DNA of 64,000 nt, taken from assembly GCA_964523905.1 (NCBI GenBank), contig CAZFYQ010000001.1, positions 40,718 through 104,717 on the forward strand, in the 5' to 3' direction. Every line of letters starts with the position of its first letter. Positions within the stretch are counted from its first letter, which is position 1. A program made the position numbers and the translations under genes. The notes under the pieces are model-generated. The model worked only from the letters and a program-made list of their open reading frames with translations, did no database searches and had not been told where the DNA came from. Below are positions 3,182-51,037 of the stretch, piece by piece. The DNA is from an uncultured Gammaproteobacteria bacterium (GTDB taxonomy: Bacteria; Patescibacteriota; Microgenomatia; Daviesbacterales; UBA10151).

Positions 3182-3856
3182 GTGAATATTATCCATGTTT
3201 CACACTTATCAAAAATTTATAACACCGGCTCTGTTGAAACAAAAGCCTTAGATAATGTGTCTTTTGATATTAAAAAAGGTGATTTTGTGGCGATTATGGG
3301 TCCTTCCGGATCTGGTAAATCGACCTTAATGCATCTTTTGGGAGCACTTGATACTCCCACCAAAGGGGAATATTTATTAGACGGAGAAGAGGTATCTAAA
3401 TTATCCGATGATCAACTGGCTGATATTAGAAACCGCAAAATTGGTTTTGTATTCCAGGCCTTTAATTTGTTACCGCGGTGCAGCGCTTTGCAAAATGTGA
3501 TGTTGCCAATGGCTTATGCCGGAGTGCCCAAGCTGGAAAGGCAGCAGCAGGCCAAAAAATATCTCACTATGGTGGGACTGGGTGATCGGATGGATCACAC
3601 GTCAAATCAGCTTTCTGGAGGTCAAATGCAAAGAGTGGCCATTGCCCGGGCTTTGGTGATGAACCCGGCGATGATTTTGGCAGATGAACCAACTGGTAAT
3701 ATTGCCTCTATTCAGGCAGAAGAAGTGATGGAGATTTTTCAAAAACTTAATGAAGAAGGACACACTATTGTGATGATTACTCATGAGCCGGATATTGCCG
3801 AACATGCCAAAAGAATTATTCATATTAAGGATGGGAGAATATATGGAATACGCTGA
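3182..3856 (+). CDS. MacB/LolD-type ABC transporter ATP-binding protein
   Basis: GTG start directly after the adaptor stop; Walker A GPSGSGKST, Q-loop, LSGGQMQRVAIARAL, Walker B ILADEPTGN. Confidence 0.85.
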   Translation: MNIIHVSHLSKIYNTGSVETKALDNVSFDIKKGDFVAIMGPSGSGKSTLMHLLGALDTPTKGEYLLDGEEVSKLSDDQLADIRNRKIGFVFQAFNLLPRCSALQNVMLPMAYAGVPKLERQQQAKKYLTMVGLGDRMDHTSNQLSGGQMQRVAIARALVMNPAMILADEPTGNIASIQAEEVMEIFQKLNEEGHTIVMITHEPDIAEHAKRIIHIKDGRIYGIR

Positions 3857-5063
3857 AGTGATTGCAGAAGCTTTTGATAATATGTTTATTAACAAGCTGC
3901 GTACCGGCTTGGCTGCTTTAGGCATTGTTATTGGAATCGGATCAGTGATAGCTTTGATCTCTTTAGGTCAGGCGACGCAGCAATCAGTACAGGATCGGAT
4001 CCAGGCTTTAGGGGCTAATTTATTAACAGTTAATCCGGGGGCACAAAGAACAGGGGCTGTTAGGGGAGCCGCCGGGGGGAACACGACTTTAACTTTGGAT
4101 GATGCAAATGCCATTAAAACCTCACCTACTGTCACTACTGTTTCCAATGTTTCTCCTGAATTTTCCAGAAGAACCCAGGTAGTAACCGGGGGAGCAAACA
4201 CCAATACTCAGGTGATTGGAGTTACTCCAGTTTACACTGAGGTACATAAAGTTACTCTGGACTCCGGTGCTTTTATCACTGACCGCGATGTTTTAGGGGT
4301 ATCCAAAGTAGCAGTGGTTGGTCCGCAGGTGGTAACTGATTTATTTAATGGAGTAAGTCCAATTGGACAAAGTCTTCGAATAACTGGACAAACCTTTACT
4401 ATCATTGGGGTAACTCAGTCAAAAGGAGGAACTGGTTTTGGCAATCAGGATGATGTTATTTATGTGCCTCTATCAACCGCTCAAAAACAATTATTCGGAG
4501 TAGATTATTTATCCTCAATTGCGCTGGAAGCTAAAAGCCCGGACGTGATGACTGATGCCCAAAATCAGGTGGGGTATTTACTACTTGGTCGTCACAAACT
4601 ATCTGATCCATCGCAAGCTGATTTTTCGATTTTTTCCCAACAGGATATTTTAAACACTGCCTCAGCTACCACCGGAACTTTTACGTCACTGTTGTCTGGT
4701 ATTGCCGCAATATCACTTCTGGTTGGAGGAATTGGCATTATGAATATCATGTTGGTAACAGTAACCGAGCGAACCAGAGAGATTGGACTTCGTAAAGCCT
4801 TGGGCGCTAAGAAGAAAATTATTATTACCCAGTTTTTAATTGAGGCGGTGATTTTAACTTTTACAGGCGGAATTGTGGGAATGGTGTTAGGGGTACTAAC
4901 CTCGTATATTATTGCTACTTTGACTCAAGCGCCGTTTATTATCTCTATCCAGGCCATTGTATTAGCCATTGGGGTGTCTGCGGGTATTGGAATTTTATTT
5001 GGTTGGTACCCGGCTAAAAGAGCCTCTGATTTACAACCAATTGAAGCACTGAGATATGAATAA
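3831..5063 (+). CDS. ABC transporter permease, FtsX/MacB-like
   Basis: N-terminal TM, large periplasmic domain, four C-terminal TMs typical of the FtsX fold; start likely M at 3831 or 3843, overlapping the ATPase end. Confidence 0.75.
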   Translation: MGEYMEYAEVIAEAFDNMFINKLRTGLAALGIVIGIGSVIALISLGQATQQSVQDRIQALGANLLTVNPGAQRTGAVRGAAGGNTTLTLDDANAIKTSPTVTTVSNVSPEFSRRTQVVTGGANTNTQVIGVTPVYTEVHKVTLDSGAFITDRDVLGVSKVAVVGPQVVTDLFNGVSPIGQSLRITGQTFTIIGVTQSKGGTGFGNQDDVIYVPLSTAQKQLFGVDYLSSIALEAKSPDVMTDAQNQVGYLLLGRHKLSDPSQADFSIFSQQDILNTASATTGTFTSLLSGIAAISLLVGGIGIMNIMLVTVTERTREIGLRKALGAKKKIIITQFLIEAVILTFTGGIVGMVLGVLTSYIIATLTQAPFIISIQAIVLAIGVSAGIGILFGWYPAKRASDLQPIEALRYE

Positions 5064-8270: not shown

Positions 8271-8615
8271 ATGGAAAAATCCGTCCAAAAACTTAATTTT
8301 TTTACCAGCGCATTCTTAGGGATAATGGGATTTTCTTTAATCGGGGAATTGTTTATGGAAGATGACTGGATGGATAAGATTGATGATGGGATGTTTCTAA
8401 TTTTAGGAATTGCCGCGATCTTTTGGTATAAATCCAATGCTCTTAAAAAATCTATGGCGCCAATTATTTTAGTATTAATTGGGGTAGCGATAAAAATCTT
8501 TGCTATTTTTGTAGAAATCAAAGATAAAGAAGCAGTCGGTGATGATTTTGGAATTTTGTCAGCGTTGTTAATTACTTTGGTAGTTGTAATTTATCAATAT
8601 AGAAAACTCAAATAA
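8271..8615 (+). CDS. small hypothetical membrane protein
   Basis: 114 aa, four hydrophobic segments. Confidence 0.5.
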   Translation: MEKSVQKLNFFTSAFLGIMGFSLIGELFMEDDWMDKIDDGMFLILGIAAIFWYKSNALKKSMAPIILVLIGVAIKIFAIFVEIKDKEAVGDDFGILSALLITLVVVIYQYRKLK

Positions 8616-10308: not shown

Positions 10309-11899
10309 ACTAAAAAAAATACATTACAAATTTCCATTGTATATTTTCTTTTTTCCCTGGTATTCAATACTTTTTTTATATAACAATAACTTTGTTAAAT
10401 TGCCGCTTAAGGTTGTTATTTTGCCGCTTTTGGTGATCACCATAATCTGTCTAGTATTCTGGTTGATTTTAAACTTATTTTTTAAAGGGTCAATTAAGGC
10501 AGGAATTGTAGTGGGGTTTTTGCTGTTAATTACTTTTATGTATGGGCCGCTGCATCAATTTGCCTATTTTGACGCTTTTAATATTGGGCCTGTTCCGATT
10601 GACTGGAGCTGGTTTTATACGATTCTCTCAGCACTTATAATGATTGGTTTAGTGCTTTTTTTAATCAGAGCCAAAAGAGAATTAGTACGTCTTAACAAAA
10701 TTTTAAACGTTGGAGGAGTGATCTTAATGATTTTGGTGCTGGTGCCATTAATTTACAATTACTCAAAAATTCATCTTAATTTTAACCAAAATTCATCTGA
10801 TCAAAGCGGAGACTCTGAAACAGTTTCCGGAACTAATGTTATAGATAAACCGGATATTTATTACATTATTCCTGATGATTACGGTGCTCCGCAAACAATG
10901 AAGGAAGATTATCAGTATGATGCCAGCAGTTTTACAAAATACTTAACTGATAAAGGTTTTTATATCGCAGATCAAAGTAAAACTAATTATCCCTATTCGA
11001 CTTTTATGATTGCCAGTGCTTTAAGTATGAATTATTTAAACACTCAGACCCAGCCAAAAATTAAAAATCAGCCGGGAGGAACAGTAATCAACAATATTAT
11101 CAATAATTCTAAAGCAGTGCATTTTCTTAAATCACAAGGATATAGTTTTTTTAATGTCGGTAGTTGGTATGATCCTTTAAGAAATAATGATTCAGCGGAT
11201 ATTAATTTTGTATATGATAATAAATTAAGACTGGATGAATTTTCCAATACCTTACTGCATAACACAATTTTTTATCCTTTAGTGCTTCGCTACTTTGGTT
11301 TATCCGGTCGGCCCAACCAAATTGCCAACATTAATTATCAATTTCAAGCTTTACAACAAATGCCCAGTCAAATCAGTCCAAAATTTGTATTTATTGACTT
11401 GTTAGCCCCGCATACTCCATGGATCTTTAACGAAAACTGTGACGTGGTGTATCATTTACAAAAAGATCCAGCGATTGTTAAATTCCTTCCAGAAGTTAAC
11501 TGTGTTAACAAAAGATTAATGACTGCCATAGATGCTATATTAAAAAATTCCAAAACCCCACCAATCATTATCTTGCAAACTGACGAGGGGGCCAAAGATG
11601 GTAATAATCAGGCTATTAAATATCCTAATAAAACTGGAGTAGTAGGTGGATTTAAAGGTTCATCAATAGATACCAATCTGGAAAGAGTAAGGATATTAAA
11701 TGCCTTTTATTTGCCCGGAAGCAGTAAGAATTTATTATATCCGGATATAACACCGGTTAATACATTCAGAGTAATTTTTAATGAATATTTTAATGCTAAT
11801 TTACCACTATTGCCGGATAAAGTTTATACGTTTGATGATTATGATTTGCTTTATAGATTTATATTTAATGATATTACTGACCAAGTTAAAGGTAAATAA
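10301..11899 (+). CDS. membrane protein with C-terminal alkaline-phosphatase-superfamily (sulfatase / LTA-synthase-like) domain
   Basis: Five N-terminal TMs followed by an extracytoplasmic domain beginning DIYYIIPDDYG, reminiscent of sulfatase/phosphoglycerol-transferase cores; 8-bp overlap with the upstream MTase. Confidence 0.4.
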   Translation: MSKLKKIHYKFPLYIFFFPWYSILFLYNNNFVKLPLKVVILPLLVITIICLVFWLILNLFFKGSIKAGIVVGFLLLITFMYGPLHQFAYFDAFNIGPVPIDWSWFYTILSALIMIGLVLFLIRAKRELVRLNKILNVGGVILMILVLVPLIYNYSKIHLNFNQNSSDQSGDSETVSGTNVIDKPDIYYIIPDDYGAPQTMKEDYQYDASSFTKYLTDKGFYIADQSKTNYPYSTFMIASALSMNYLNTQTQPKIKNQPGGTVINNIINNSKAVHFLKSQGYSFFNVGSWYDPLRNNDSADINFVYDNKLRLDEFSNTLLHNTIFYPLVLRYFGLSGRPNQIANINYQFQALQQMPSQISPKFVFIDLLAPHTPWIFNENCDVVYHLQKDPAIVKFLPEVNCVNKRLMTAIDAILKNSKTPPIIILQTDEGAKDGNNQAIKYPNKTGVVGGFKGSSIDTNLERVRILNAFYLPGSSKNLLYPDITPVNTFRVIFNEYFNANLPLLPDKVYTFDDYDLLYRFIFNDITDQVKGK

Positions 11900-16668: not shown

Positions 16669-19600
16669 TTAAGGTGAAACTACAAACGGTATGCCAGTCC
16701 GATTATTAGCGGGATTATTATCATTGACTTGGTTATAAAAATCAGCGATGACTGCAAAACAATAATTACCTGCCTCAGTTGGAGTCCAGGAATTAGGGTA
16801 AGAGAAATGTTGGCTAGACCCAGGATTTAGCTGGTTGGTTGCCGGTATAGTAGAGATAAAAGTAGTGAAGCTGACCGTAGTATCACAAATATTACTTGGG
16901 TTGGAAGAACGAATTACTCCCAAGGCGGTAGTGGTTGGATTAAGCGCCACCGTACCTAAATTGGCTGTATCAGCCTCAAAACTGACTGGTTGCCCTACGG
17001 TTGGTGATTGTGGCGACAAGCTTAAATTTTCGGCAGCAATATCAGTAATAATAGAGGGTGCCGGATTAATAATAACCGGAGATGGTTCTGGTGTTGAAGT
17101 AGGAGGTGAATAAGGTCTCTGAAAGATTAAAGACCGGGAAATAGTTTGTTGCTGTCCGTTTTGATCAAGGTAAGTAATAGTCATTAAATATGAGGTATTG
17201 GCATTTAAATCAAGATCAAGACCAGAAGAATTGTTTGGATAAATTTCCTGGTCATTAACAGTGATTCTAAGTAATTGTTTTTGGTGGGTGGTAGGAGTGG
17301 TGAGTGTTGGTGTTGGGGTATTAGCACTTGGTGCGGAACCAGTGCAGACTAAGTTGCCACAAGTTAAAGTAACATTGGCATCACAAGTAGAGGTGATCTG
17401 GTTTTGGTAAGTACAACCATCTGTTGGAGCAGGACATGAAATGCTGCGACAATTGGGATGATTGCGAGACGGTGTCGGGGTCGGTGCGGCTTCTTCAATA
17501 ATTGGCGCGTTGGTTGGTACTATATTTCCACCTAACTGGTATTCGCAGCGCTTAAGAATAGTAGGTGCAGGATCACTGCCAAAAGTACCGTTGCCACAAA
17601 CATAAGTACCTTGGGCAAAGACTTTAGTTATAAATTGCCCATTAGCTCCAAAGCGGACTGTTGCATTACCCGGTATACTACAGTTTTCAAATTCATTACT
17701 ACAGAAAGTCCAACCAGTATCAGTTGGACTGGTAGTGGGGCTAACAGCCGGTCTTTGGAAAACTAAAGAGCGGGTGGCGGTTTGTTGATGGCCCTGGGAA
17801 TCAAGATAAGTGATTTCCATTAAATAGGCACTACTGGAATTTAAATTAAGATCAATTCCATTTGGATTTTGTGGATAAATTTGTTGTCCGTTAACAGTAA
17901 TACTAATTAATTGTTTTTGGTGGGTAGTACTGGTAGGACTGATAGTTGATGGTGCATTATTTTTCCAACTTCTCATTTCTTGGAAAGCTGGTTTAGGTGA
18001 GCCATTAGGGCTCATCAGTCCTAAATAGCAATACCAGCCAAATTCTGAACTGATTTGCTGCTGGTTACAGTTAACATCAGCCAATGAGACATAATTAATA
18101 GCGGCGATTGATTTTCCATTATTTTTTGCCTGATCAACCATTTGCCTTAAACGATTGATATAAGCAGATTGAGCATCAGGAGAGGCTGGGAAACTTTGCC
18201 AGGAAGTGCTAATCCACCCGGTCTCTGAGATGAATAAAGGTAGATTAGAACCGGATGAATCAATAATACTACTTAACAGGTTTGTGGGAATATTGTTAAT
18301 ATCACTGCCATAACTAAATTCCGGATACAAAGAGACTGCTAAGACATCCACTTTGTTATTAAAATCAGCCAGTTCCTGTCTTAAATCAGAATTGGCAGTA
18401 AAACTAACAGCCACTTGGGTATTACTGCTTACTGCTTTAATGGCATCATAGGCTTTGGGGTAAAGGGTATGAGCAAAATAATTATAATCAGTCTGGTTAG
18501 CGTTTTTATAAGTATTAACCTCCAGGCCAATCAGGAGATATTTTGGATGGTAAGTCCGAGCAATATCAACCATTGTATTAATAAAGGAGTTATTATCCGG
18601 ATTAGAATACTGGTTTTGGAAAGTCACAGGAGTGGAGTCACTGCAATGATCAGTTCCATCACTGGATGCCACCTTATTTCTGCTATTACAAAGAGGATCA
18701 AAGGCAATATATGTATCAAGTCCAGCATTTTTTGAATCGTTTACATCGGTGCTAATATCCGGATTATGTAAGTCATTCCAACTTCTTTGAATATAAGCCA
18801 AACTAGCAACATCGTTAGCGCTATTCCAGCCGGTTTGACCTGAAACACTAGTTCCGGGAGAAAAAAACTTGACACCTAATTTGAAGTTTACTGGTTGGGG
18901 ATTTGCTGGAGAAGTAGGATTAGGAGTAGGACTTGCAGCAGGAGTGTGAGAAGCTGAATTTGTTGCTGTATTAACCTGGCAGTTGGCAGTAGCAGTTGTT
19001 CCCCCTGATTTTACAGTCACTGTAGCTTGATAAGTACCGGGAATGGCATAGTCAACTTGAGCAGTTTTACCGTCAAGCCCGGAATAATAATGACTGGCAG
19101 GATCGCCGCTCCAGGAGTAATCATAGGTACCATTACCGGCAGTAGCATTGGCAGTCCAGATAACTGTATCAGCAGGAGTACCAAGTGGTCCAGGTTTGGG
19201 ATAGGCAGCAGAGCAAGTCACTTGAACTGGAGTCGTGCAAGCTGGAGTGACAAGTACGTGACTGGTGCCGTCAAATGATCCGGCAGGATTACCAGCCGAC
19301 ATAATATATTGATAACTGGTGCCGGAAACTAGATCCGGTGCTGCTCCGTCAAAACCGGAAAAATCAGCCGGATCGTTTTTGATAATACCGCTGGCAGCAT
19401 TATCAGTTGGCGGAATATTAGCGTAAGCATAATTATGGTCTACCCAGATACTGTCGTGATAACCATCAGGATTTTGTATAAAGCTATATGGTGACAGAGT
19501 TCTGACAATATAGACCGCGTCTCCTGAGGAAGGCCTTAAATTTAAACTAACTTTAGGAGTAGTGCCATCACAACTGACATCAACTGATACAGGAAACCCT

Positions 19601-21771
19601 CCCGGTACTCCACCACTATTAACCGGTGGAGGAATCTGGTTACCGGTAACAGGACTAGTGACAATTAAAGGGAAGTTAGTACAGTTATTTAATATATTAG
19701 GTTCAGAAACAAGATTATGATTGGAATCAGCGCAAACCCGTACTGAATATGCTCCAGGTTGAGAAACTGTCCATTGGCTACCTTCACTAACAGGTATTAC
19801 CTCACCACCATTTTGTCCATTACAAGCTGGAGGCTGAGTTGAAGCAAAGCCGGTAAAGAGCGCTCGTCCGGTTGGTATGGCATCTTTAGGGAAAGTACCC
19901 TTAAATACTGCAAAACTGGTTGTGAAACTATTACCAGAAATATTGGAAGCAATACAACCTGTATGAAGCGCGTTGACAATAGTAGCTGCAAAACTTAAGG
20001 ATTTTCCAGTGGTAATTTGTTTAGGATCTCCCGGAGTAGCAGTAATAACAAAGTCTCTAGGACTGCCGGTGTTTTGAACTGTCAGGTCAGGAAATGGTCC
20101 TTGAATTGGTCCACCGTTGCTGTAATAAACAGTGGGGGTTGGTGTAGTAGAGATGTTAGGATTTGGGGAAGTAATTGGGACTGAAGGGTTACCAGGAGTA
20201 GTAATTGTTTTAGTGACACAATTATCAGACTCATTTGATTCAGGTGATTGATTAGTATAATCAGCACAAGCTCGGACATTATATGTTGAGCCAGGATCTA
20301 ATGCACCAGTGGTTAAAGTATCATCTTTGGATTGTCCGGGTACTATTAGACCAACATTATCTAAAGGTTTAGCAGCTACAACCGTATTATCGCTGGCTTT
20401 ACTAACAGTCAATAATTCTGATGAATTTAATACTGGTTCTGCGTTGGGGGTTAAAGGATCTATAAAATGAGCAGAAAAAACCCATCCTTGATTATTATCT
20501 TCAGTAGGTTGATCAACTTGAGCGGTAAGATTTGGTAGGTTTGCATATTCTGCTCCTGTACACATTCCGATATCCCGATCTGCAAATACCCAGTTAGGGC
20601 TATGAACCCAAGGGTCTGCGGTAGAACCTGATTCAGATATCGTACGATCACCTACATTAAGCCCAACTGTCATATGAAGATGAACAAAGGCCTGTGAAAC
20701 CAGGTTACCTGCAATATGCCAGGATTGCTTGGTATCATTAACATTAATATCCTCATTAGGTGTAGTAATATTTTGATAAACATGAAGATACTGTAAAGTC
20801 CAAACCTGACCGTCTGGCGCATCAACTGAATGATAAACTCGTGCATAACCTGTACCAGCATCAAACCATCCAATGTATTGCCATGTCACTACATGTCCAT
20901 CAATGGTTGGTAAATATACCGGATCGCCGGCATTTTTAGCGATGCCAGATCCCTGATCTGTAATATCAATTGATTTGGCAGTTCGTATCAGGTCTCCGGC
21001 AGCATTTTTTACAGGATTACAAATCCCTTGGTCTGCAATATATTGGGGACTACAATGGCCACCAATACCGGTTCCAGCATTTATTCCGGAAGTTGCTGAA
21101 CACCCTTGACTGGTGAATCCTCCAAAAGTTGTGGGTGGACCATAAGAACCGCAACTTATTTTACCCTCAGGGACTGGACAGCTAAAGACATGACCAGTGT
21201 TTGTAGTTGGATTAGTCGGATTGGCAGGAGTGTTGGGATTAGTTTGAATTGGAATTTGGGTTGCACCACCTGGTTCTGAGTTATTAGCGGTAGTGACATT
21301 ATTGCTTCCTTGAACATTTAAGGGATAATTGGCAATTGTGCCAACCTGACCACTGGTATTTTCCGGTATCACTGCTAAGTTGTAGTTACCGCTACTAACA
21401 GTCTGCGGAATTTGATAAGTCCAAGTGCCAGCGCTATTAACCGGGACTGAGGCAGTTGTACCATTAGGTGCAAGAGTTAGAATTGCTTTACCTCCGGGAG
21501 TGCCGGTGCCTGTAATGCTGTCTGCTTGAGTGATTTGGTTAGGAGCAGTGGCGCTAAAATTACGTACTGAGTAAGTTTGAGGACTATGATGAAGTCGGGG
21601 TAGAATTTGATTCTTATAAACCCAGAAGCCGGCAGGAATAAGTATTACCAAGAGAAGTAAAATGGAAAGTTTAATGATAGTTTTTTTGGGGAGATTTTTA
21701 AACATTAGAAATGGTGAAGGTTCTGGAGGAGTGTAGTTGGGTGATATATAAACTTGCGGGTTAGTATCCAC
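16669..21771 (-). CDS. giant secreted multidomain surface protein (1700 aa)
   Basis: N-terminal signal-anchor and T/N/P/G-rich linkers throughout. Clan GH-A-like TIM-barrel region (LLIGLEVN ... FISETGW, about 17962-18894). PKD-like module (YDYSWSGDP..GTYQATVTV, about 18967-19209). Possible M23-like zinc-peptidase signature (YLHV ... FVHLHM, about 20572-21099). Twice-repeated 58-aa module near the C-terminus and a Cys-rich segment. Confidence 0.8.
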   Translation of the reverse strand: MDTNPQVYISPNYTPPEPSPFLMFKNLPKKTIIKLSILLLLVILIPAGFWVYKNQILPRLHHSPQTYSVRNFSATAPNQITQADSITGTGTPGGKAILTLAPNGTTASVPVNSAGTWTYQIPQTVSSGNYNLAVIPENTSGQVGTIANYPLNVQGSNNVTTANNSEPGGATQIPIQTNPNTPANPTNPTTNTGHVFSCPVPEGKISCGSYGPPTTFGGFTSQGCSATSGINAGTGIGGHCSPQYIADQGICNPVKNAAGDLIRTAKSIDITDQGSGIAKNAGDPVYLPTIDGHVVTWQYIGWFDAGTGYARVYHSVDAPDGQVWTLQYLHVYQNITTPNEDINVNDTKQSWHIAGNLVSQAFVHLHMTVGLNVGDRTISESGSTADPWVHSPNWVFADRDIGMCTGAEYANLPNLTAQVDQPTEDNNQGWVFSAHFIDPLTPNAEPVLNSSELLTVSKASDNTVVAAKPLDNVGLIVPGQSKDDTLTTGALDPGSTYNVRACADYTNQSPESNESDNCVTKTITTPGNPSVPITSPNPNISTTPTPTVYYSNGGPIQGPFPDLTVQNTGSPRDFVITATPGDPKQITTGKSLSFAATIVNALHTGCIASNISGNSFTTSFAVFKGTFPKDAIPTGRALFTGFASTQPPACNGQNGGEVIPVSEGSQWTVSQPGAYSVRVCADSNHNLVSEPNILNNCTNFPLIVTSPVTGNQIPPPVNSGGVPGGFPVSVDVSCDGTTPKVSLNLRPSSGDAVYIVRTLSPYSFIQNPDGYHDSIWVDHNYAYANIPPTDNAASGIIKNDPADFSGFDGAAPDLVSGTSYQYIMSAGNPAGSFDGTSHVLVTPACTTPVQVTCSAAYPKPGPLGTPADTVIWTANATAGNGTYDYSWSGDPASHYYSGLDGKTAQVDYAIPGTYQATVTVKSGGTTATANCQVNTATNSASHTPAASPTPNPTSPANPQPVNFKLGVKFFSPGTSVSGQTGWNSANDVASLAYIQRSWNDLHNPDISTDVNDSKNAGLDTYIAFDPLCNSRNKVASSDGTDHCSDSTPVTFQNQYSNPDNNSFINTMVDIARTYHPKYLLIGLEVNTYKNANQTDYNYFAHTLYPKAYDAIKAVSSNTQVAVSFTANSDLRQELADFNNKVDVLAVSLYPEFSYGSDINNIPTNLLSSIIDSSGSNLPLFISETGWISTSWQSFPASPDAQSAYINRLRQMVDQAKNNGKSIAAINYVSLADVNCNQQQISSEFGWYCYLGLMSPNGSPKPAFQEMRSWKNNAPSTISPTSTTHQKQLISITVNGQQIYPQNPNGIDLNLNSSSAYLMEITYLDSQGHQQTATRSLVFQRPAVSPTTSPTDTGWTFCSNEFENCSIPGNATVRFGANGQFITKVFAQGTYVCGNGTFGSDPAPTILKRCEYQLGGNIVPTNAPIIEEAAPTPTPSRNHPNCRSISCPAPTDGCTYQNQITSTCDANVTLTCGNLVCTGSAPSANTPTPTLTTPTTHQKQLLRITVNDQEIYPNNSSGLDLDLNANTSYLMTITYLDQNGQQQTISRSLIFQRPYSPPTSTPEPSPVIINPAPSIITDIAAENLSLSPQSPTVGQPVSFEADTANLGTVALNPTTTALGVIRSSNPSNICDTTVSFTTFISTIPATNQLNPGSSQHFSYPNSWTPTEAGNYCFAVIADFYNQVNDNNPANNRTGIPFVVSP
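17116..17289 (-). repeat. intragenic repeat copy 2 (58-aa module THQKQLLRITVNDQEIYPNN...LIFQR)
   Basis: Protein-level and DNA-level similarity (about 70%) to copy 1 at 17752-17925; shared DNA stretch attgtttttggtgggt. Confidence 0.8.
17752..17925 (-). repeat. intragenic repeat copy 1 (58-aa module THQKQLISITVNGQQIYPQN...LVFQR)
   Basis: See copy 2; copies lie about 615 bp apart inside the giant ORF. Confidence 0.8.
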
Positions 21772-45219: not shown

Positions 45220-46251
45220 TTATGAATATTTTTCAAGTAGGGTTAAGACTTTGACTTCACTTTGGGAAAGTAATGGGATGGTTCTGGTAACTCTTTGAAA
45301 ATGGGGGATCAGCAGGTTTTTGGAATAGGTGCTGATAATCGTTGGATGAATATAATATTTCTGGGCAACTGAAGGAGTATTGCGCAAATGTTTGGCCACT
45401 TCTTTGATAGTTTGTTTAATATACTGTTTTTCTTTTTCTGCCTCGGCTTTGCCTAAGGAATTTAAGTTGGAAGCTGCTAAAACTGTGGCGCCCCAGGTGC
45501 GAAATTCCTTGGCAGTGATTTCTTCACCGGAAAGCTCTTGCAAAAATGCATTAACATCCCCGGAATCAATAGTTTCTCTTTGGCCATCCGCATCAATACA
45601 TTTAAATAATTCATAACCCGGTAGTTCAATGCATTGTTTAATGGTTTTGGCCACACTGGGATGGGAAATAGATACCAAATGATTAACTCCGGATTTACCA
45701 ACAAATTCAAATTTAATCTGGCTGCCACGGACACTAACATGACGGTTACGGAGAGTGGTCAGGCCAAAAGACTGATTATCTTTGGCATATTCATCGTTGC
45801 CGATTCTAATAAAAGTATGTTCCAACAGCCAAACAATGGTGGAAAGCACTTTTTCCTTGGATAATTTGGCTTTTTTAAGATTCGACAAATTATTTTGACG
45901 GATTTTGGGCAGCAGTTTGCCAAAATCAACCAGTTTACTAAATTTATCTTCATTACATAAAGCCAACCAGTCAGGATGATATAAATATTGTTTGCGTCCT
46001 TTGTCATCTATTCCAGTGGCCTGCAAATGGGAATTTTCCAAAGGTGAAATCCAAACCTCTTTCCAGGCCGGGGGAATAACCAAAGCTTTAATTCTTTCCA
46101 AGACATTTTGGTTTGCCACCACATGTCCACTATGATCAAGATATTTAAATTCTCTTCCGTGTTTAACCCGTTTAATCCCCGGGCCAGCATCAGAAATATA
46201 GCGCAGGTGAATTTTTTTAGCCTGTTTAATTAAATCTTCATCAGCCAGCAT
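45220..46251 (-). CDS. DNA topoisomerase IB (poxvirus-type, bacterial TopIB)
   Basis: 343 aa; N-terminal LRYISDAGPGIKRVKHG; C-terminal NTPSVAQKYYIHP resembles the NTPAVCRKCYVHP active-site-Tyr motif of bacterial TopIB. Confidence 0.7.
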   Translation of the reverse strand: MLADEDLIKQAKKIHLRYISDAGPGIKRVKHGREFKYLDHSGHVVANQNVLERIKALVIPPAWKEVWISPLENSHLQATGIDDKGRKQYLYHPDWLALCNEDKFSKLVDFGKLLPKIRQNNLSNLKKAKLSKEKVLSTIVWLLEHTFIRIGNDEYAKDNQSFGLTTLRNRHVSVRGSQIKFEFVGKSGVNHLVSISHPSVAKTIKQCIELPGYELFKCIDADGQRETIDSGDVNAFLQELSGEEITAKEFRTWGATVLAASNLNSLGKAEAEKEKQYIKQTIKEVAKHLRNTPSVAQKYYIHPTIISTYSKNLLIPHFQRVTRTIPLLSQSEVKVLTLLEKYS

Positions 46252-46360
46252 AATATAACAATAGCATATTAACTTATCTTCTATTTTTCCAAAAAAAGAC
46301 TAAACTTAAATAGTGATCAGGATCATTGAGTAACGTTAGTAAAGATGCTAATAATTAGCT

Positions 46361-46876
46361 ATGAAAATATTAGTGGTTTACCAAAGCAAATATGGTAGCA
46401 CCAGACAGTATGCCGAGTGGATTGCCCAAAAACTAAAAGCAGACCTGGTTCATTTAAATGATCTTGACCCTAAAACTTTGCCAAATTATGAAACAGTTAT
46501 TTTTGGTACTTATTTGCATATTGGAAAACTGGTCGATGCCATATTTTTAATTCAAAACTGGGAGGTTTTAAAACATAAACAGCTGATTTTATTTACTGTT
46601 TCCGGAGCTAAACCAGGTCTTAGTGAATTAACTAAGTATTATGAAAATAGTGTGCCAGGTTACATTAGGGAAAAGATTAAGTATTTCCAGTTTTGGGGAA
46701 GAGTCAAAAATTTGGACTTCACAGATTCCCTGTTAATCCAGTTTCCTAAATTGGCATTTAAAATTGGGGCTATGAAAGGTAAAAAAGAGGATTTGGAAAG
46801 ATTAAAAACATTCGATGTTGATCATGTCAGTCAGGATTTTATAACCCCGCTGATTAATTTTGTTAATCCGGCCTAA
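46361..46876 (+). CDS. flavodoxin-like domain protein
   Basis: MKILVVYQSKYGSTRQYAEWIA flavodoxin N-terminal signature; 171 aa. Confidence 0.6.
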   Translation: MKILVVYQSKYGSTRQYAEWIAQKLKADLVHLNDLDPKTLPNYETVIFGTYLHIGKLVDAIFLIQNWEVLKHKQLILFTVSGAKPGLSELTKYYENSVPGYIREKIKYFQFWGRVKNLDFTDSLLIQFPKLAFKIGAMKGKKEDLERLKTFDVDHVSQDFITPLINFVNPA

Positions 46877-46966
46877 TTTCCTGCAATATTCTTACAAAAT
46901 ATTTACTTTTAGTTAACTAGCAATTTGTATGGTGGATGAGTATAATTTTTAAAGGAGGTGAAGTAA

Positions 46967-47449
46967 ATGTCAAATAATCAAGTTAAATTAACAGTTGAGA
47001 AGGGTAAACAGGAAACTTTTATTGAGCGGGAATTTGAGGCTCCCAGAGAGGTCTTATTTAAAGCTATGACTGATCCAGAATATGTGGCTCAGTGGTGGAA
47101 TGATACATCTATTGAAAAGCTGGAAGCTAAATCCGGTGGCAGCTGGAGGTTTGTCTCTAAAATGAATGGACAGGAATTTGGGTTTCATGGAGTCTATCAT
47201 GAGGTGCTGGTTCCGTCTCGAGTAATAGAGACTTTTGAGTATGAGGGTTTACCGGAAACCGGGCATGTTATTTTGCAAACTTCTAAATTTGAAGAGCTGC
47301 CAGGTGGTCGGTCTAAACTAACTATTCAACAGGTTTTTCAATCAGTGGCAGATCGTGATGGAATGATCCAAAGCGGCATGGAAAAGGGTATGAGTGAGTC
47401 ATACGGACGTCTGGATAATCTTTTGGAAAAGTTAGCGAAAAAGGATTAG
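46967..47449 (+). CDS. SRPBCC-superfamily protein (AHSA1/START-like)
   Basis: [22 protein letters not shown] and overall helix-grip pattern; RBS AAAGGAGGTGA. Confidence 0.65.
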
Positions 47450-47596
47450 ATGGTGGTACTTTTATCCTATTTCTGGGGCTCACAAGATTGACAAAATTTT
47501 TTCCAGGTATATAATTCTTCTAAACATGGCTGGAATTGAAGAAGGGATGATATTGGAAGAATTATTCATTCTAGGCCAGTTTAAACTTTAATACGG

Positions 47597-47652
47597 TTGA
47601 CAAAGAGGTAAAAGATGTATATAAATAATAATATGTTATAAATTTATAACAT
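47597..47652 (+). promoter_or_regulatory. promoter (TTGACA-17-TATAAA) followed by a perfect 20-bp palindrome operator
   Basis: TTGACA 47597-47602, TATAAA 47620-47625; palindrome ATGTTATAAA|TTTATAACAT at 47633-47652, 6 nt before the ORF start. Confidence 0.5.
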
Positions 47653-47658
47653 GACTTT

Positions 47659-48018
47659 ATGCCTAACATCACTACAAAAGAAACAACAGTAACTAGTGGT
47701 GGAGGGAAAGCAGCCCAATCACAGACTATTGCGTATATTGTTTATTTTCTCTTTGGTGTGATTGAAATATTACTTTTGTTCCGTTTAGTATTTAGACTCT
47801 CAGGGGCTAATCCGGGCAGCAGTTTTGTAAGTTTTATCTATTCACTGACCCAATTATTTATAATGCCTTTTTCAGGGATATTTCCTCAAGCCAGCACCCA
47901 AGGCGTAGTTACAACTGCAGTTTTGGAGCCGGCAACGCTAGTTGCGCTTGTTGTATATGCTGTTTTAGCATGGGGGATTACGCAGTTAGTGGTGATATTG
48001 TCGGGGAGGCAAAAGTGA
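47659..48018 (+). CDS. YggT-family membrane protein
   Basis: Two TM helices with conserved YggT-like pattern (LLFRLVFRL ... IMPFSGIFP). Confidence 0.6.
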   Translation: MPNITTKETTVTSGGGKAAQSQTIAYIVYFLFGVIEILLLFRLVFRLSGANPGSSFVSFIYSLTQLFIMPFSGIFPQASTQGVVTTAVLEPATLVALVVYAVLAWGITQLVVILSGRQK

Positions 48019-48023
48019 AAAGT

Positions 48024-49225
48024 ATGAAAATCTATTACCGCTCTCTACGGGGGGGGTAGGAAAATTTACAGCTTTTGTTTTAGCATTACTACTGGTTTTC
48101 ATCACTGTCGGTTTTACAACTCCATCAAAAGTATTTGCTGCCACTTCACCCACACTAAGTGCGTTAAGTAATTACTCTGTTTTGGGTGGGGCAGCAGTAA
48201 CCTGTACTGGTGCAACTACTACAACAGGTGCTGTGGGGGTTTCTCCCGGCACCTCCATTACCGGTTTTCCCAGTCCGTGTACTGCAGGGGGTGGGACACA
48301 GTCTAATAACGCGAGTGCAATAGCTGCCCAAGCCGAAGCCCTATCTACATTCGCTACTCTTAACCAAACCTGTGATCAGACTTTTGGGGCAGTGGATTTA
48401 ACTGCTACCTTTCCCTCTGGTGTTGGCCCAGGCGTCTATTGTTCCACTAGCAGTTTCACTCTAACGGGAAATCTAAATCTGACCGGCTCAGGGGTTTGGA
48501 TTTTTAAATCTGTATCCACAATTATTACCTCTCCAGGCTCTTCTGTGACCGGAGGGGATGCTTGCAACATCTGGTGGAGGGTGGGTAGCTCTGCTACTCT
48601 TGATACAACAACTTCATTTAAAGGAAATCTTTTTGCTCTTAATGGCACTACCGCCCTGAATGCAGGCGCAACCGTGGACGGTCGGATTGTCGGACTAGCT
48701 GCCAATACCGTGACTTTAAACGCCAACACGATTAGTGGACCTACCTGTGCTGCTGCTGCCTCTAGCTCGTCTTCAGCCTCCGGTTCCAACGGTTCCAGCA
48801 GTTCCAATGGGCCAACTGCTCCATTTTGTCCAACTCTTGCAAGCACAATAATTGCACCCAGTATAATAGAGTCAAGAAGAGTTAGCCCTACCAGTGTCTT
48901 TGTTAGCTGGGGTCCATACTCTGGAGTTAATACATTTAATGTGCAATATGGTCTGACCAACGGGAGCTGGTTGTATAACGTGGATGTTAGTGGATTCTCT
49001 ACTACTATTAATAATCTTCCGGCAAACCAACCAATCTGGGTTAGAGTGGCAGCCAGAAGTGATTGTAGGGTAGGAACGTATGGAGAGTCAAAACTTGTTG
49101 GAGGACCAGGTTTGCCAAATACAGGGCTCGCTCCCCCACAGAGCAACATTCCCTGGTATATTCCAGCTGGTGTTTTGCTGCTTTTGTCCTCTTGTCTAAT
49201 CGGTATCTATGGACGGACAAAATAA
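48024..49225 (+). CDS. LPXTG-anchored surface protein with ice-binding-like (DUF3494-type) beta-helical domain and FN3-like domain; reading frame interrupted by G8 tract
   Basis: ATG at 48024 with RBS GGGGAGG gives MKIYYRSLRGG then stop. Frame +2 continues without a start codon as a canonical signal peptide (KFTAFVLALLLVFITVGFTTPSKVFA|ATSP) into the 48182-49225 ORF. C-terminal LPNTG + TM + RTK sorting signal. Confidence 0.7.
48049..48056 (+). repeat. homopolymeric G8 tract inside the signal-peptide coding region
   Basis: GGGGGGGG at 48049-48056; counted directly; separates the start codon frame from the mature protein frame. Confidence 0.9.
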
Positions 49226-49842
49226 AGCAACTCATGGGTCCCAAGTTCAGAAAAACCTTTTCAATAGCAGTGTTTGTACTACTGTCTATAATCTCGTTTT
49301 CCTATCTAATCTTTATTTTAAACAAACAAAGCGCGGTGGTTTATGCAAGCAGCCCGCTTGTTTTTGAACCAATATTATCAGCCGAAGTTCAAAAAAGGAG
49401 CCAAATATTACCGGTCCGCCTTAGAATTCCCAGTATCAATGTTGATGCTGCTGTTGAAAATGTCGGTCTAACGCCTGCAGGCGCAATGGAAGTACCAAGT
49501 AATATACTTGATGTTGGATGGTATACGCTTGGATCCCTTCCTGGCGCAACAGGCAGCGCTGTTATTTCCGGACATTTTGACGGCAGTACTGGTGAATCAG
49601 GGGTGTTTAATAATTTGGATAAATTAAAGCCGGGAGATAAAATATATGTTGTAAATGATCAAGGAGCAACTATTGTTTTTGTGGTTCGGGAAAGTCGAAC
49701 TTATAATCCGGGATATGCAGATGACGTTTTTTTCCCAAACGACAATGGCACACACCTCAATCTTATTACCTGTGATGGCGTGTGGGATGGAGCAAAAAAG
49801 AGTTATAGTAAACGTCTGGTAGTATTTTCAGATATTCTTTAA
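49192..49842 (+). CDS. sortase (class E/F-like transpeptidase)
   Basis: N-terminal TM, catalytic His (VISGHFD), Cys (LNLITCDG) and Arg; overlaps the LPXTG substrate gene end. Confidence 0.85.
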   Translation: MSNRYLWTDKIKQLMGPKFRKTFSIAVFVLLSIISFSYLIFILNKQSAVVYASSPLVFEPILSAEVQKRSQILPVRLRIPSINVDAAVENVGLTPAGAMEVPSNILDVGWYTLGSLPGATGSAVISGHFDGSTGESGVFNNLDKLKPGDKIYVVNDQGATIVFVVRESRTYNPGYADDVFFPNDNGTHLNLITCDGVWDGAKKSYSKRLVVFSDIL

Positions 49843-49860: not shown

Positions 49861-50067
49861 ATGGCAAAAAATGACAAGGGCATGAATCCAGTAGTAGCTG
49901 GAGCAATTGGAGTTGCAGCTGGTGTAGTAGCCGGTGCTGCGACTGTAGCATTAGCTAATGAGAAGAATCGTGAAATGATAGGTGACAAGTTGGAGGAGAT
50001 TAAAGAAGAGGTACAGGATAAGGTTGAAGATGTTAAGCAGGATATTGAAGAAAAGGCTCAAAAGTAG
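49861..50067 (+). CDS. small amphipathic protein (68 aa)
   Basis: RBS AAGGAGGTGA; hydrophobic G/A-rich segment then a charged coiled-coil (EEIKEEVQDKVEDVKQDIEEKAQK). Confidence 0.55.
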   Translation: MAKNDKGMNPVVAGAIGVAAGVVAGAATVALANEKNREMIGDKLEEIKEEVQDKVEDVKQDIEEKAQK

Positions 50068-50288: not shown

Positions 50289-50318
50289 TTGACTATTATA
50301 TCAATATTGATATATAAT
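50289..50318 (+). promoter_or_regulatory. promoter of the toxin-antitoxin operon (near-leaderless)
   Basis: TTGACT (50289-94), 17-18 nt spacer, TATAAT (50313-18); ATG at 50323. Confidence 0.45.
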
Positions 50319-50322
50319 AATT

Positions 50323-50679
50323 ATGGATTTTAATATTATCTATTACCAAGAAACCTCAGGAAAGTATCCTGTGGAAGAGTTTCTAATAGAGCTTAAAAGA
50401 ACAAATAGTATTCTTGCTGGGCAAGCTTTTAAAGGAATTGAGAAGCTAAGGAATAGAGCTTACCATAAAGAACCTTTATCAAAACATTTAGAACCAGGAT
50501 TATGGGAACTGAGAATTAAAACTGGAACGGATATATTAAGGATAATTTATACTTTTGAAAGGGGACAAATAATAATTTTATTACATAGTTTTGTAAAAAA
50601 AGATCAAAAAACACCGGTAAGCGAACTTGAAATGGCCAGGAGAAGATTAAAAGAGATAAAAACAAGAAAGGAGAAATAA
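50323..50679 (+). CDS. type II toxin, RelE/ParE superfamily (Gp49/HigB-like)
   Basis: 118 aa; pattern IIYYQETSGKYPVEEFL...LWELRI..GTDILRIIYTF typical of the Gp49-like toxin family; followed by an XRE antitoxin. Confidence 0.65.
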   Translation: MDFNIIYYQETSGKYPVEEFLIELKRTNSILAGQAFKGIEKLRNRAYHKEPLSKHLEPGLWELRIKTGTDILRIIYTFERGQIIILLHSFVKKDQKTPVSELEMARRRLKEIKTRKEK

Positions 50680-50680
50680 T

Positions 50681-51037
50681 ATGAACAGACCAAAAGATGA
50701 TTTAGATAGAACAATAGAACAAATTCTCAAGGAAGATCCTTCCTTTCAACAGGAATTGGATAAGGCCGATCGTGCGTGGGATATTGCTTTCCAAATTCGT
50801 GATCTGAGGGAAAAAGCGGGTTTAACCCAAAAGCGATTGGCGGAACTTGTGGGGACTAAGCAATCCAATATTGCCAGGATTGAAGATGCTGATTATACCA
50901 GCTACACCTTAACTACCTTAGAAAAAGTTACTAAAGCCCTTAAAGCTAAATTGGAAATCAGAATTGTTTCTACTAAATATAGAAATCACGCACATAAAGA
51001 ATCCTACCCGGCCGTTTCCCACAGAATTTCCAAATAA
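50681..51037 (+). CDS. XRE-family HTH antitoxin (HigA-like)
   Basis: HTH LTQKRLAELVGTKQSNIARIE; 2-nt gap after the toxin gene. Confidence 0.7.
   Translation: MNRPKDDLDRTIEQILKEDPSFQQELDKADRAWDIAFQIRDLREKAGLTQKRLAELVGTKQSNIARIEDADYTSYTLTTLEKVTKALKAKLEIRIVSTKYRNHAHKESYPAVSHRISK

Follow-up and report, generated by a model that had tools for sequence, protein, structure and literature searches.

In the 64,000-nt stretch of contig CAZFYQ010000001.1 (assembly GCA_964523905.1) analyzed here, hereafter the window, the gene for a sortase-anchored surface protein with a DUF3494-type ice-binding protein (IBP) domain is broken near its 5' end by a run of eight G residues (G8). All positions refer to the window, and the genes of this locus lie on the + strand. 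The G8 homopolymer (48049–48056) spans codons 9–11 of a short upstream open reading frame (ORF; 48015–48059), which supplies a start codon and the n-region of a signal peptide and translates as (V/M)KSMKIYYRSLRGG followed by a stop. Read directly from the ATG at 48024, this frame runs ATG AAA ATC TAT TAC CGC TCT CTA CGG GGG GGG TAG, or MKIYYRSLRGG, with the TAG (48057–48059) immediately 3' of the G run. The main ORF (48056–49225, stop codon at 49223–49225) lies in the -1 frame, which is open from 47996, after a TGA at 47993–47995, through to 49225 and contains a body of 389 codons beginning with the h/c region of a signal peptide (48056–48139, ending VFA/ATSP, where the slash marks cleavage). 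It has no start of its own: the ORF listing contains no ATG, GTG, or TTG in this frame over 47996–48181, and the first, a TTG at 48182, lies past the signal peptide. As sequenced, the start codon and the signal-peptide core therefore sit in different frames. By frame calculation, a G9 tract would yield a continuous protein of 400 aa and a G6 tract one of 399 aa, compared with 11 aa for G8; the lengths that place the start and the signal peptide in one frame are G6, G9, and G12, so that from G8 a single additional G suffices. The initial annotation, made from the sequence alone, had described this arrangement of ribosome-binding site, ATG, 11-residue peptide, and stop, the restoration of the frame by G9 or G6, and the absence of any independent start ahead of the signal peptide; all of this holds up on direct reading, and a check for an alternative in-frame start was negative. 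As an example for locked-tract variants (G8, G9) of the segment 47990–48140, we give GGAGGTGG.

Two codons could initiate translation of the short ORF. The Shine-Dalgarno (SD)-like sequence GGGGAGG (48003–48009) lies 5 nt ahead of the GTG at 48015 and 14 nt ahead of the ATG at 48024, and the GTG equals or surpasses the ATG as a candidate start and may be the real one, three codons earlier. The two codons share a frame, so the choice of start leaves the frameshift unaffected. The in-frame GTG also overlaps the stop codon of the preceding yggT-like gene (TGA, 48016–48018) as GTGA, and the IBP gene is probably translationally coupled to yggT. The MKI(F/Y) N-terminus of the short ORF resembles the N-termini of orthologs, such as MKIFNKK and MKIFKN.

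With the frame repaired, the gene encodes a complete cell-wall-anchored protein consisting of a signal peptide, a DUF3494 domain, a Ser-rich linker, a fibronectin type III (FN3) domain, and an LPNTG motif followed by a transmembrane (TM) segment and RTK. The signal peptide is of Sec type and 39 aa long, and its N-terminus, with four positive charges, a 17-aa hydrophobic core, and cleavage at VFA/ATSP, fits the pattern of signal peptides in homologs. The DUF3494 domain (Ice_binding, PF11999; about 48179–48733) scores 96.1 bits against a cutoff of 28.7 (E 3e-27), covering positions 1–207 of the 208 in the profile, whereas the NCBIfam IBP equivalog model gives 35 bits, far under its cutoff of 400. 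The family assignment in the initial annotation was thus correct, although the domain it had put at ~350 aa spans about 185 aa (residues 53–237), with the Ser-rich linker next. An AlphaFold2 model built with 40 homologs (pLDDT 82 overall and >90 through the beta-helix domain) shows a right-handed beta-helix with a helix at residues 86–101 alongside it, flanked by short strands, and a further helix at residues 368–388. In a Foldseek search with this model, the top 31 PDB matches were all DUF3494 IBPs, with 6eio and 7bwy at TM-scores of 0.82–0.85 and 33–34% identity; FN3 domains followed at TM-scores of 0.7–0.8, so the FN3 domain (about 48854–49072), weak in Pfam, is clear in the model. The C-terminal sorting signal is complete, with LPNTG at 49112–49126, then the hydrophobic LAPPQSNIPWYIPAGVLLLLSSCLIGIYG, then RTK. 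The domain order and adjacent sortase that the initial annotation had proposed are accordingly confirmed by Pfam, the model, and Foldseek. Pfam detected only Ice_binding and the weak fn3 match in this single substrate gene and found no pilin domains, and the predicted anchoring to the cell wall suggests an adhesin-like role for the protein.

The sortase gene (49234–49842; PF04203, E 2.7e-23) starts 8 nt past the IBP stop codon and encodes an enzyme with an N-terminal TM anchor. It is nearest to class F, rather than to the pilus-type class C, at 121 bits and thus under the 166-bit class F cutoff. The catalytic motifs SGH, LITC (Cys), and KRLVV (Arg) are visible in the alignment, and the protein is 66% identical to the sortase adjoining the nearest ortholog of the IBP gene. 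The IBP is the only LPXTG-type protein within the window. Elsewhere in the window, on the - strand, an ORF of 1700 aa (16669–21771) with CARDB, Big_13-like, and weak GH53-like matches and no detected sorting signal is probably a large surface or secreted protein.

The IBP and sortase genes appear to be part of a larger transcription unit. A promoter-like TTGACA-16-TATAAT site matching the consensus at 12 of 12 positions (47488–47515) stands ahead of the yggT-like membrane protein gene (47659–48018; PF02325, E 3.6e-5, under the gathering score), and the sortase gene is followed by a gene for a small YtxH-like protein (49861–50067; weak Pfam match). The next strong promoter-like site on the + strand is at 50289–50318, and no convincing terminator occurs between the two sites. 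yggT, IBP, sortase, and ytxH (the last gene of the set) thus probably form one operon, bracketed by these promoters and probably transcribed from the first. The second promoter, which is near-consensus, belongs to a pair of genes at 50323–51037, separated by 1 nt, that encode a Gp49-family toxin-like protein and a helix-turn-helix (Xre-type) antitoxin-like protein; compared with the synteny of the nearest ortholog locus, this pair is inserted between the IBP-sortase operon and ychF.

To place the interrupted gene within its family, we compared it with homologs. The family comprises 1242 proteins at E <= 1e-10, with named members from Patescibacteria, the Microgenomates group, and Saccharibacteria. 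The closest homologs are 76–78% identical over their full length, and the gene here carries no second lesion in its 389 codons, which makes the break recent, reversible, or artefactual. Among close homologs (~120 from Patescibacteria), the signal peptide is uninterrupted, 25–40 aa long, and ends in A/A(T/S)SP, showing that the break is specific to this lineage. The pairing of IBP and sortase is conserved, being present in at least seven orthologous loci (L021, L022, L024, L028, L029, L030, and L007 in our set). In the nearest ortholog locus, L021, a G7 run lies within the IBP gene (2966–2972) and a C7 run within the adjoining cupin gene (3838–3844). Each of them is in frame, and the 130 kb of related loci contain no other G/C run of this length or longer.

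One orthologous gene is frameshifted at a homopolymer of a different kind. In L007 (Ga0163152_10000130, 3979–4010), and identically in L008 (1177–1208), the ATG at 3979 (ATG..CTA AAA AAA TAT..TGA) reads through an A7 run as MDNRLKKYSF and then stops, so that the break falls in the n-region of the signal peptide; an A8 run would give the clean signal peptide MDNRLKKIFVLTVTLFCFFGVTKSNVWA/ATSP. This A7 state is present in at least three assemblies, namely the two JGI assemblies L007 and L008 and a Logan assembly (P0118). In L007 a sortase follows the IBP gene, and the gene caller took an internal TTG as the start. We also checked the DNA of eight further homologs that had been called without an n-region, a sample biased toward near-full-length calls: five proved intact (one with a TTG start, the other four truncated only by the gene caller), one was startless, and one carried an in-frame TGA. 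Among the 10 homologs with truncated gene calls, homopolymer frameshifting is seen only in L007, L008, and P0118; we considered whether it recurs and claim no enrichment, and the A7 case is only a suggestive parallel to the G8 locus. In the startless homolog (L022, 536–580; Logan SRR22387960), a signal-peptide-like h-region has no upstream ATG, GTG, or TTG in any frame, and a T7 run occurs at 553. In the homolog with the TGA (L028, 213–218; Logan SRR18595301), the codon stands at position +1 of the signal-peptide cleavage site (VQA-stop-TSP) and is either a nonsense mutation or a Gly codon under code 25, some homologs having AG/TSP at this point; the sortase of L028 is flanked by two IBP genes.

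We next asked how reliable the assembly is around homopolymers. Coding sequence makes up 92% of the window, which includes ORFs of 1700, 795, 695, 644, and 627 aa and has a GC content of 39.2%, where the initial annotation had given ~38% for the genome. It contains 58 homopolymers of at least 7 A/T or 6 G/C, including five 8-mers; 49 of the 58 lie deep inside intact ORFs, and the G8 run is the only one that breaks a gene. The intact ORFs across the other long homopolymers indicate that the assembly is not prone to indels. Two ORF pairs (8676/8911 and 22538/22809) were considered as other split genes and rejected, as no split domain was found, and an A8 run at 10312 was rejected as a frameshift junction because the stop of the first ORF precedes the run. 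Runs of A/T within the first ~10 codons of genes, all in frame, occur as A7–A8 at 10312, 13684, 31245, and 57345 and as T7 at 8297 and 26279. A7 and A8 runs just after start codons are common owing to Lys-rich N-termini, and homopolymers at the 5' ends of genes occur generally in this genome, which makes them a general source of potential frameshifts.

Data from the same strain cover the flanks of the locus. Two Logan assemblies (SRR9179562 and SRR9179560) of runs with public raw reads contain this strain, with 100% identity over 2332 nt, and our literature search found no paper that mentions these runs; the corresponding contig, L025, is equivalent to 45687–48018 of the window, and together with L026 and L027 it breaks on both sides of the IBP gene. 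These breaks may have nothing to do with the tract and instead stem from k-mers shared with the numerous paralogous IBP genes in the community. We considered whether the end of L025 at 48018 marks a de Bruijn bubble between G8 and G9 and rejected this, since such a bubble would end at 48056; we treat the contig end as uninformative. Queries with YggT and YtxH recovered the same-strain Logan contigs, and sibling contigs encoding the sortase, YchF, or the 347-aa ORF that starts at the TTG were not found. Scans of genome and metagenome contigs returned only relatives at <=77% identity, and a pattern scan of viral contigs allowing a variable tract length gave 0 matches. Databases list the neighboring proteins, both from an NCBI contig of 189,250 bp and from Logan, but no protein from the IBP gene, for which annotation as a pseudogene is a possible explanation.

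The best-supported reading of the locus, one that we hold tentatively and at slightly less than even weight, is that the G8 run is genuine and prone to slippage and forms a reversible ON/OFF switch, seen here in the OFF state. The gene shows three features of a contingency locus: a homopolymer in the 5' coding region, a one-unit change that toggles between full-length and truncated products, and an otherwise intact gene. Slipped-strand mispairing during replication would alter the length of the tract, placed at codons 9–11 of the first surface-protein gene in the yggT-IBP-sortase operon, and cells of one population would thus differ in tract length, to their presumed adaptive benefit. In the OFF state (G8), initiation at GTG 48015 or ATG 48024 would give a peptide of 11–14 residues that terminates at TAG 48057, and the 389-codon body, lacking its own start, would give no adhesin-like protein. 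In the ON state (G9, or G6 or G12), the start would be fused to the signal peptide, the DUF3494-FN3 protein would be secreted, and the adjacent sortase would attach it at LPNTG to the cell wall. By analogy with Bifidobacterium breve (PMC9187656), polarity from the 1.17 kb of mRNA left untranslated when the switch is OFF may reduce sortase expression as well. OFF may leak slightly through low-level -1 slippage of the P-site tRNA on G_GGG_GGG at a slow TAG codon. The phase-variation switch proposed in the initial annotation gains from the match with the B. breve architecture, the intact downstream ORF, the absence of other homopolymer-linked frame breaks in the window, the conserved pairing of IBP and sortase, and the scarcity of long G/C runs in the window and in related loci.

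Several observations weigh against such a switch, and they concern above all the conservation and statistics of the tract. The comparison of orthologous loci that had been suggested as a check came out negative, with no N-terminal G/C tract at ~20 orthologous loci or in 120 homolog N-termini; across 130 kb of related loci from the candidate phyla radiation (CPR), G/C runs of at least 8 are absent altogether. The initial annotation had also called the G8 run compositionally unexpected, which is only weakly true. No other G/C run in the window exceeds 6, but a window is expected to have 0.26 runs of at least 8 if bases are independent and identically distributed and 0.63 if they follow an order-3 Markov model, and in the latter case 45% of simulated windows have at least one such run, against the one seen here. 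In codon usage, GGG accounts for 15% of the codons for Gly and CGG for 14% of those for Arg. What is noteworthy is therefore not the run itself, which is not statistically exceptional, but its position at codons 9–11 of a surface protein gene and its effect on the frame. The same-strain contigs stop short of the tract, none of them spans it, and no variation in tract length was seen; a set of 5.8 billion proteins contained none with this N-terminus, whatever the tract state; only one such locus is visible within the 64-kb window; and G8 is shorter than the G10–G12 tracts of Bifidobacterium.

Under two of the alternatives, the tract has no regulatory function. The true tract could be G9, or a mixed population could have been collapsed to the wrong length, in which case the gene would simply be intact and unregulated. 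We consider such a miscount unlikely, though it is the alternative to which we give the most weight. Short-read consensus at an 8-mer is normally reliable, none of the other 57 long runs in the window is linked to a frame break, and even a G9 tract at this position would remain prone to slippage. On the other side, the gene is otherwise perfect and is restored by a single added base, the same-strain Logan assemblies are fragmented around it in a manner suggesting modest coverage, problems of Illumina sequencing at G tracts are documented, and tract lengths in databases can be wrong (PMC9187656). Somewhat less probable still is a young pseudogene, in which one base was lost from a G9 tract that had arisen by chance, perhaps with an occasional drift back but with no use as a switch. 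The restriction of the tract to this lineage would fit this explanation, as would the prevalence of N-terminal homopolymers in a genome with Lys-rich starts and the N-terminal lesions in other family members (the A7 run of L007, L008, and P0118, and those of L022 and L028), which suggest that the family is often lost or dispensable. Against a pseudogene stand the lack of a second lesion in 389 codons, the intact SD, start, and sortase, and CGG-GGG-GGG, an atypical sequence for an n-region that is Lys-rich in homologs.

The other two alternatives would have the protein made from the G8 allele as it stands. Programmed -1 ribosomal frameshifting (PRF) on G_GGG_GGG, or transcriptional slippage, could yield the same protein as G9, and the site has the right form: the 0-frame heptamer G_GGG_GGG (48050–48056) is a formally perfect X_XXY_YYZ with the stop directly next to it, allowing a P-site slip with TAG in the A site, and a -1 shift lands exactly in the IBP frame. 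The L007 ortholog requires the same -1 shift, on A_AAA_AAA, although agreement in direction has a 50% chance of arising anyway. We nevertheless regard recoding as very improbable. The downstream segment shows no stimulatory structure (48057–48140: -7.5 kcal/mol, z = +0.99), and an apparent hairpin across the tract (z = -1.8) is the pairing of CU-rich sequence with the G run; no Rfam element was found, the site is absent in homologs, our literature search returned no bacterial example of G_GGG_GGG, and most known transcriptional slippage occurs at A/T runs of at least 9. At most, recoding could make the OFF state leaky. Even harder to credit is a non-canonical start downstream of the tract, which would place the tract in a 5' leader or upstream ORF and leave the gene uninterrupted. 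CTG 48092 and ACG 48047 are in frame and make this a mere possibility; neither is preceded by an SD, the frame offers no ATG, GTG, or TTG over 47996–48181, and a start at CTG 48092 would leave out the charged n-region along with half of the hydrophobic core. A product begun at TTG 48182, past the signal peptide, would be neither secreted nor anchored.

If the slippage switch is real, it is of a known kind, and what is new is the host phylum and the cargo; the initial annotation's description of a novel regulatory feature was too broad, given the B. breve precedent, and applies only to Patescibacteria and to a DUF3494 protein. CPR bacteria (Patescibacteria) are mostly uncultured, those in cultivation live attached to host cells, and diversity-generating retroelements are among the few means by which they are known to vary their surfaces. 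Our search of the literature turned up no homopolymer phase variation in CPR, only a hypervariable gene with an in-frame 9-mer repeat in a Gracilibacterium (PMC6851277), and nothing on DUF3494 combined with a sortase. It is conceivable, though on balance doubtful, that this is the first homopolymer contingency locus in Patescibacteria/CPR, in which poly-G slippage would toggle a sortase-anchored DUF3494-FN3 protein, and perhaps the sortase by polarity, giving heterogeneity of the attachment surface in an ultra-small, probably host-attached bacterium, with the A7 ortholog suggesting recurrent 5' homopolymer toggling of an abundant CPR family. Verification would add stochastic phase variation to the mechanisms of surface variation in CPR and single out the common DUF3494-sortase cassette as a likely host-interaction module. 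Annotation pipelines may discard such genes as pseudogenes.

Comparison with known systems places the separate parts of the locus. The protein resembles the IBP-1 proteins (EfcIBP, 6eio; AnpIBP, 7bwy; FfIBP, 4nu2; SfIBP_1, 6bg8) in its above-threshold PF11999 match and its predicted beta-helix with a flanking alpha-helix, and differs in the added FN3 domain and LPXTG anchor; ice binding is only putative. The tract shares with -1 PRF sites of the dnaX and IS-element type a 0-frame X_XXY_YYZ heptamer from which the product would continue in the -1 frame. It lacks a stimulatory structure downstream, an SD upstream at the customary spacing, and conservation, and we know of no precedent for a -1 PRF site at codons 9–11 of a secreted protein.

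Neisseria, Campylobacter, and Helicobacter carry the classical poly-G/C contingency loci. These have many tracts per genome and documented variation, in contrast to the single tract visible here. A poly-C homopolymer switch is described for nanH3 of Gardnerella (bioRxiv 10.1101/2020.09.16.300947). Like the classical loci, nanH3 resembles the present gene in that a G/C homopolymer lies early in the coding sequence for a surface or cell-wall-associated protein, and its length sets full-length versus truncated product. nanH3 and the Neisseria and Campylobacter loci are more distant analogues than B. breve UCC2003, in which bbr_0113a/b and bbr_1889a/b form a proven G-tract ON/OFF switch in pilus genes (Penno et al. 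2022, PMC9187656). There, a 24-nt start-bearing ORF (bbr_0113a) and a G11 tract are followed by a long LPXTG ORF without its own initiation; mixtures of G11 and G12 were measured, ON lengths were enriched in vivo, Illumina artefacts occurred at G tracts, and the tract length annotated in the reference genome was not the majority length (PMC9187656). The two systems differ in tract length (G8 here, G10–G12 there), in cargo (a DUF3494/IBP-FN3 monomer rather than a pilin) and type of sortase, and in host, a probable Patescibacterium with a window of 39% GC compared with a high-GC actinobacterium. They differ also in that the Bifidobacterium tract is conserved across species, whereas the present one is absent from all orthologs, and in that tract heterogeneity was measured there, whereas here a single length, G8, was assembled. 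In both, however, a G tract near the 5' end divides the leading gene of a sortase cluster into a tiny start ORF and a startless LPXTG ORF, a dedicated sortase lies downstream, the ON state is reached, or here would be reached, by a tract change of -1+3n or +1, and the reference genome was deposited at an OFF length (PMC9187656).

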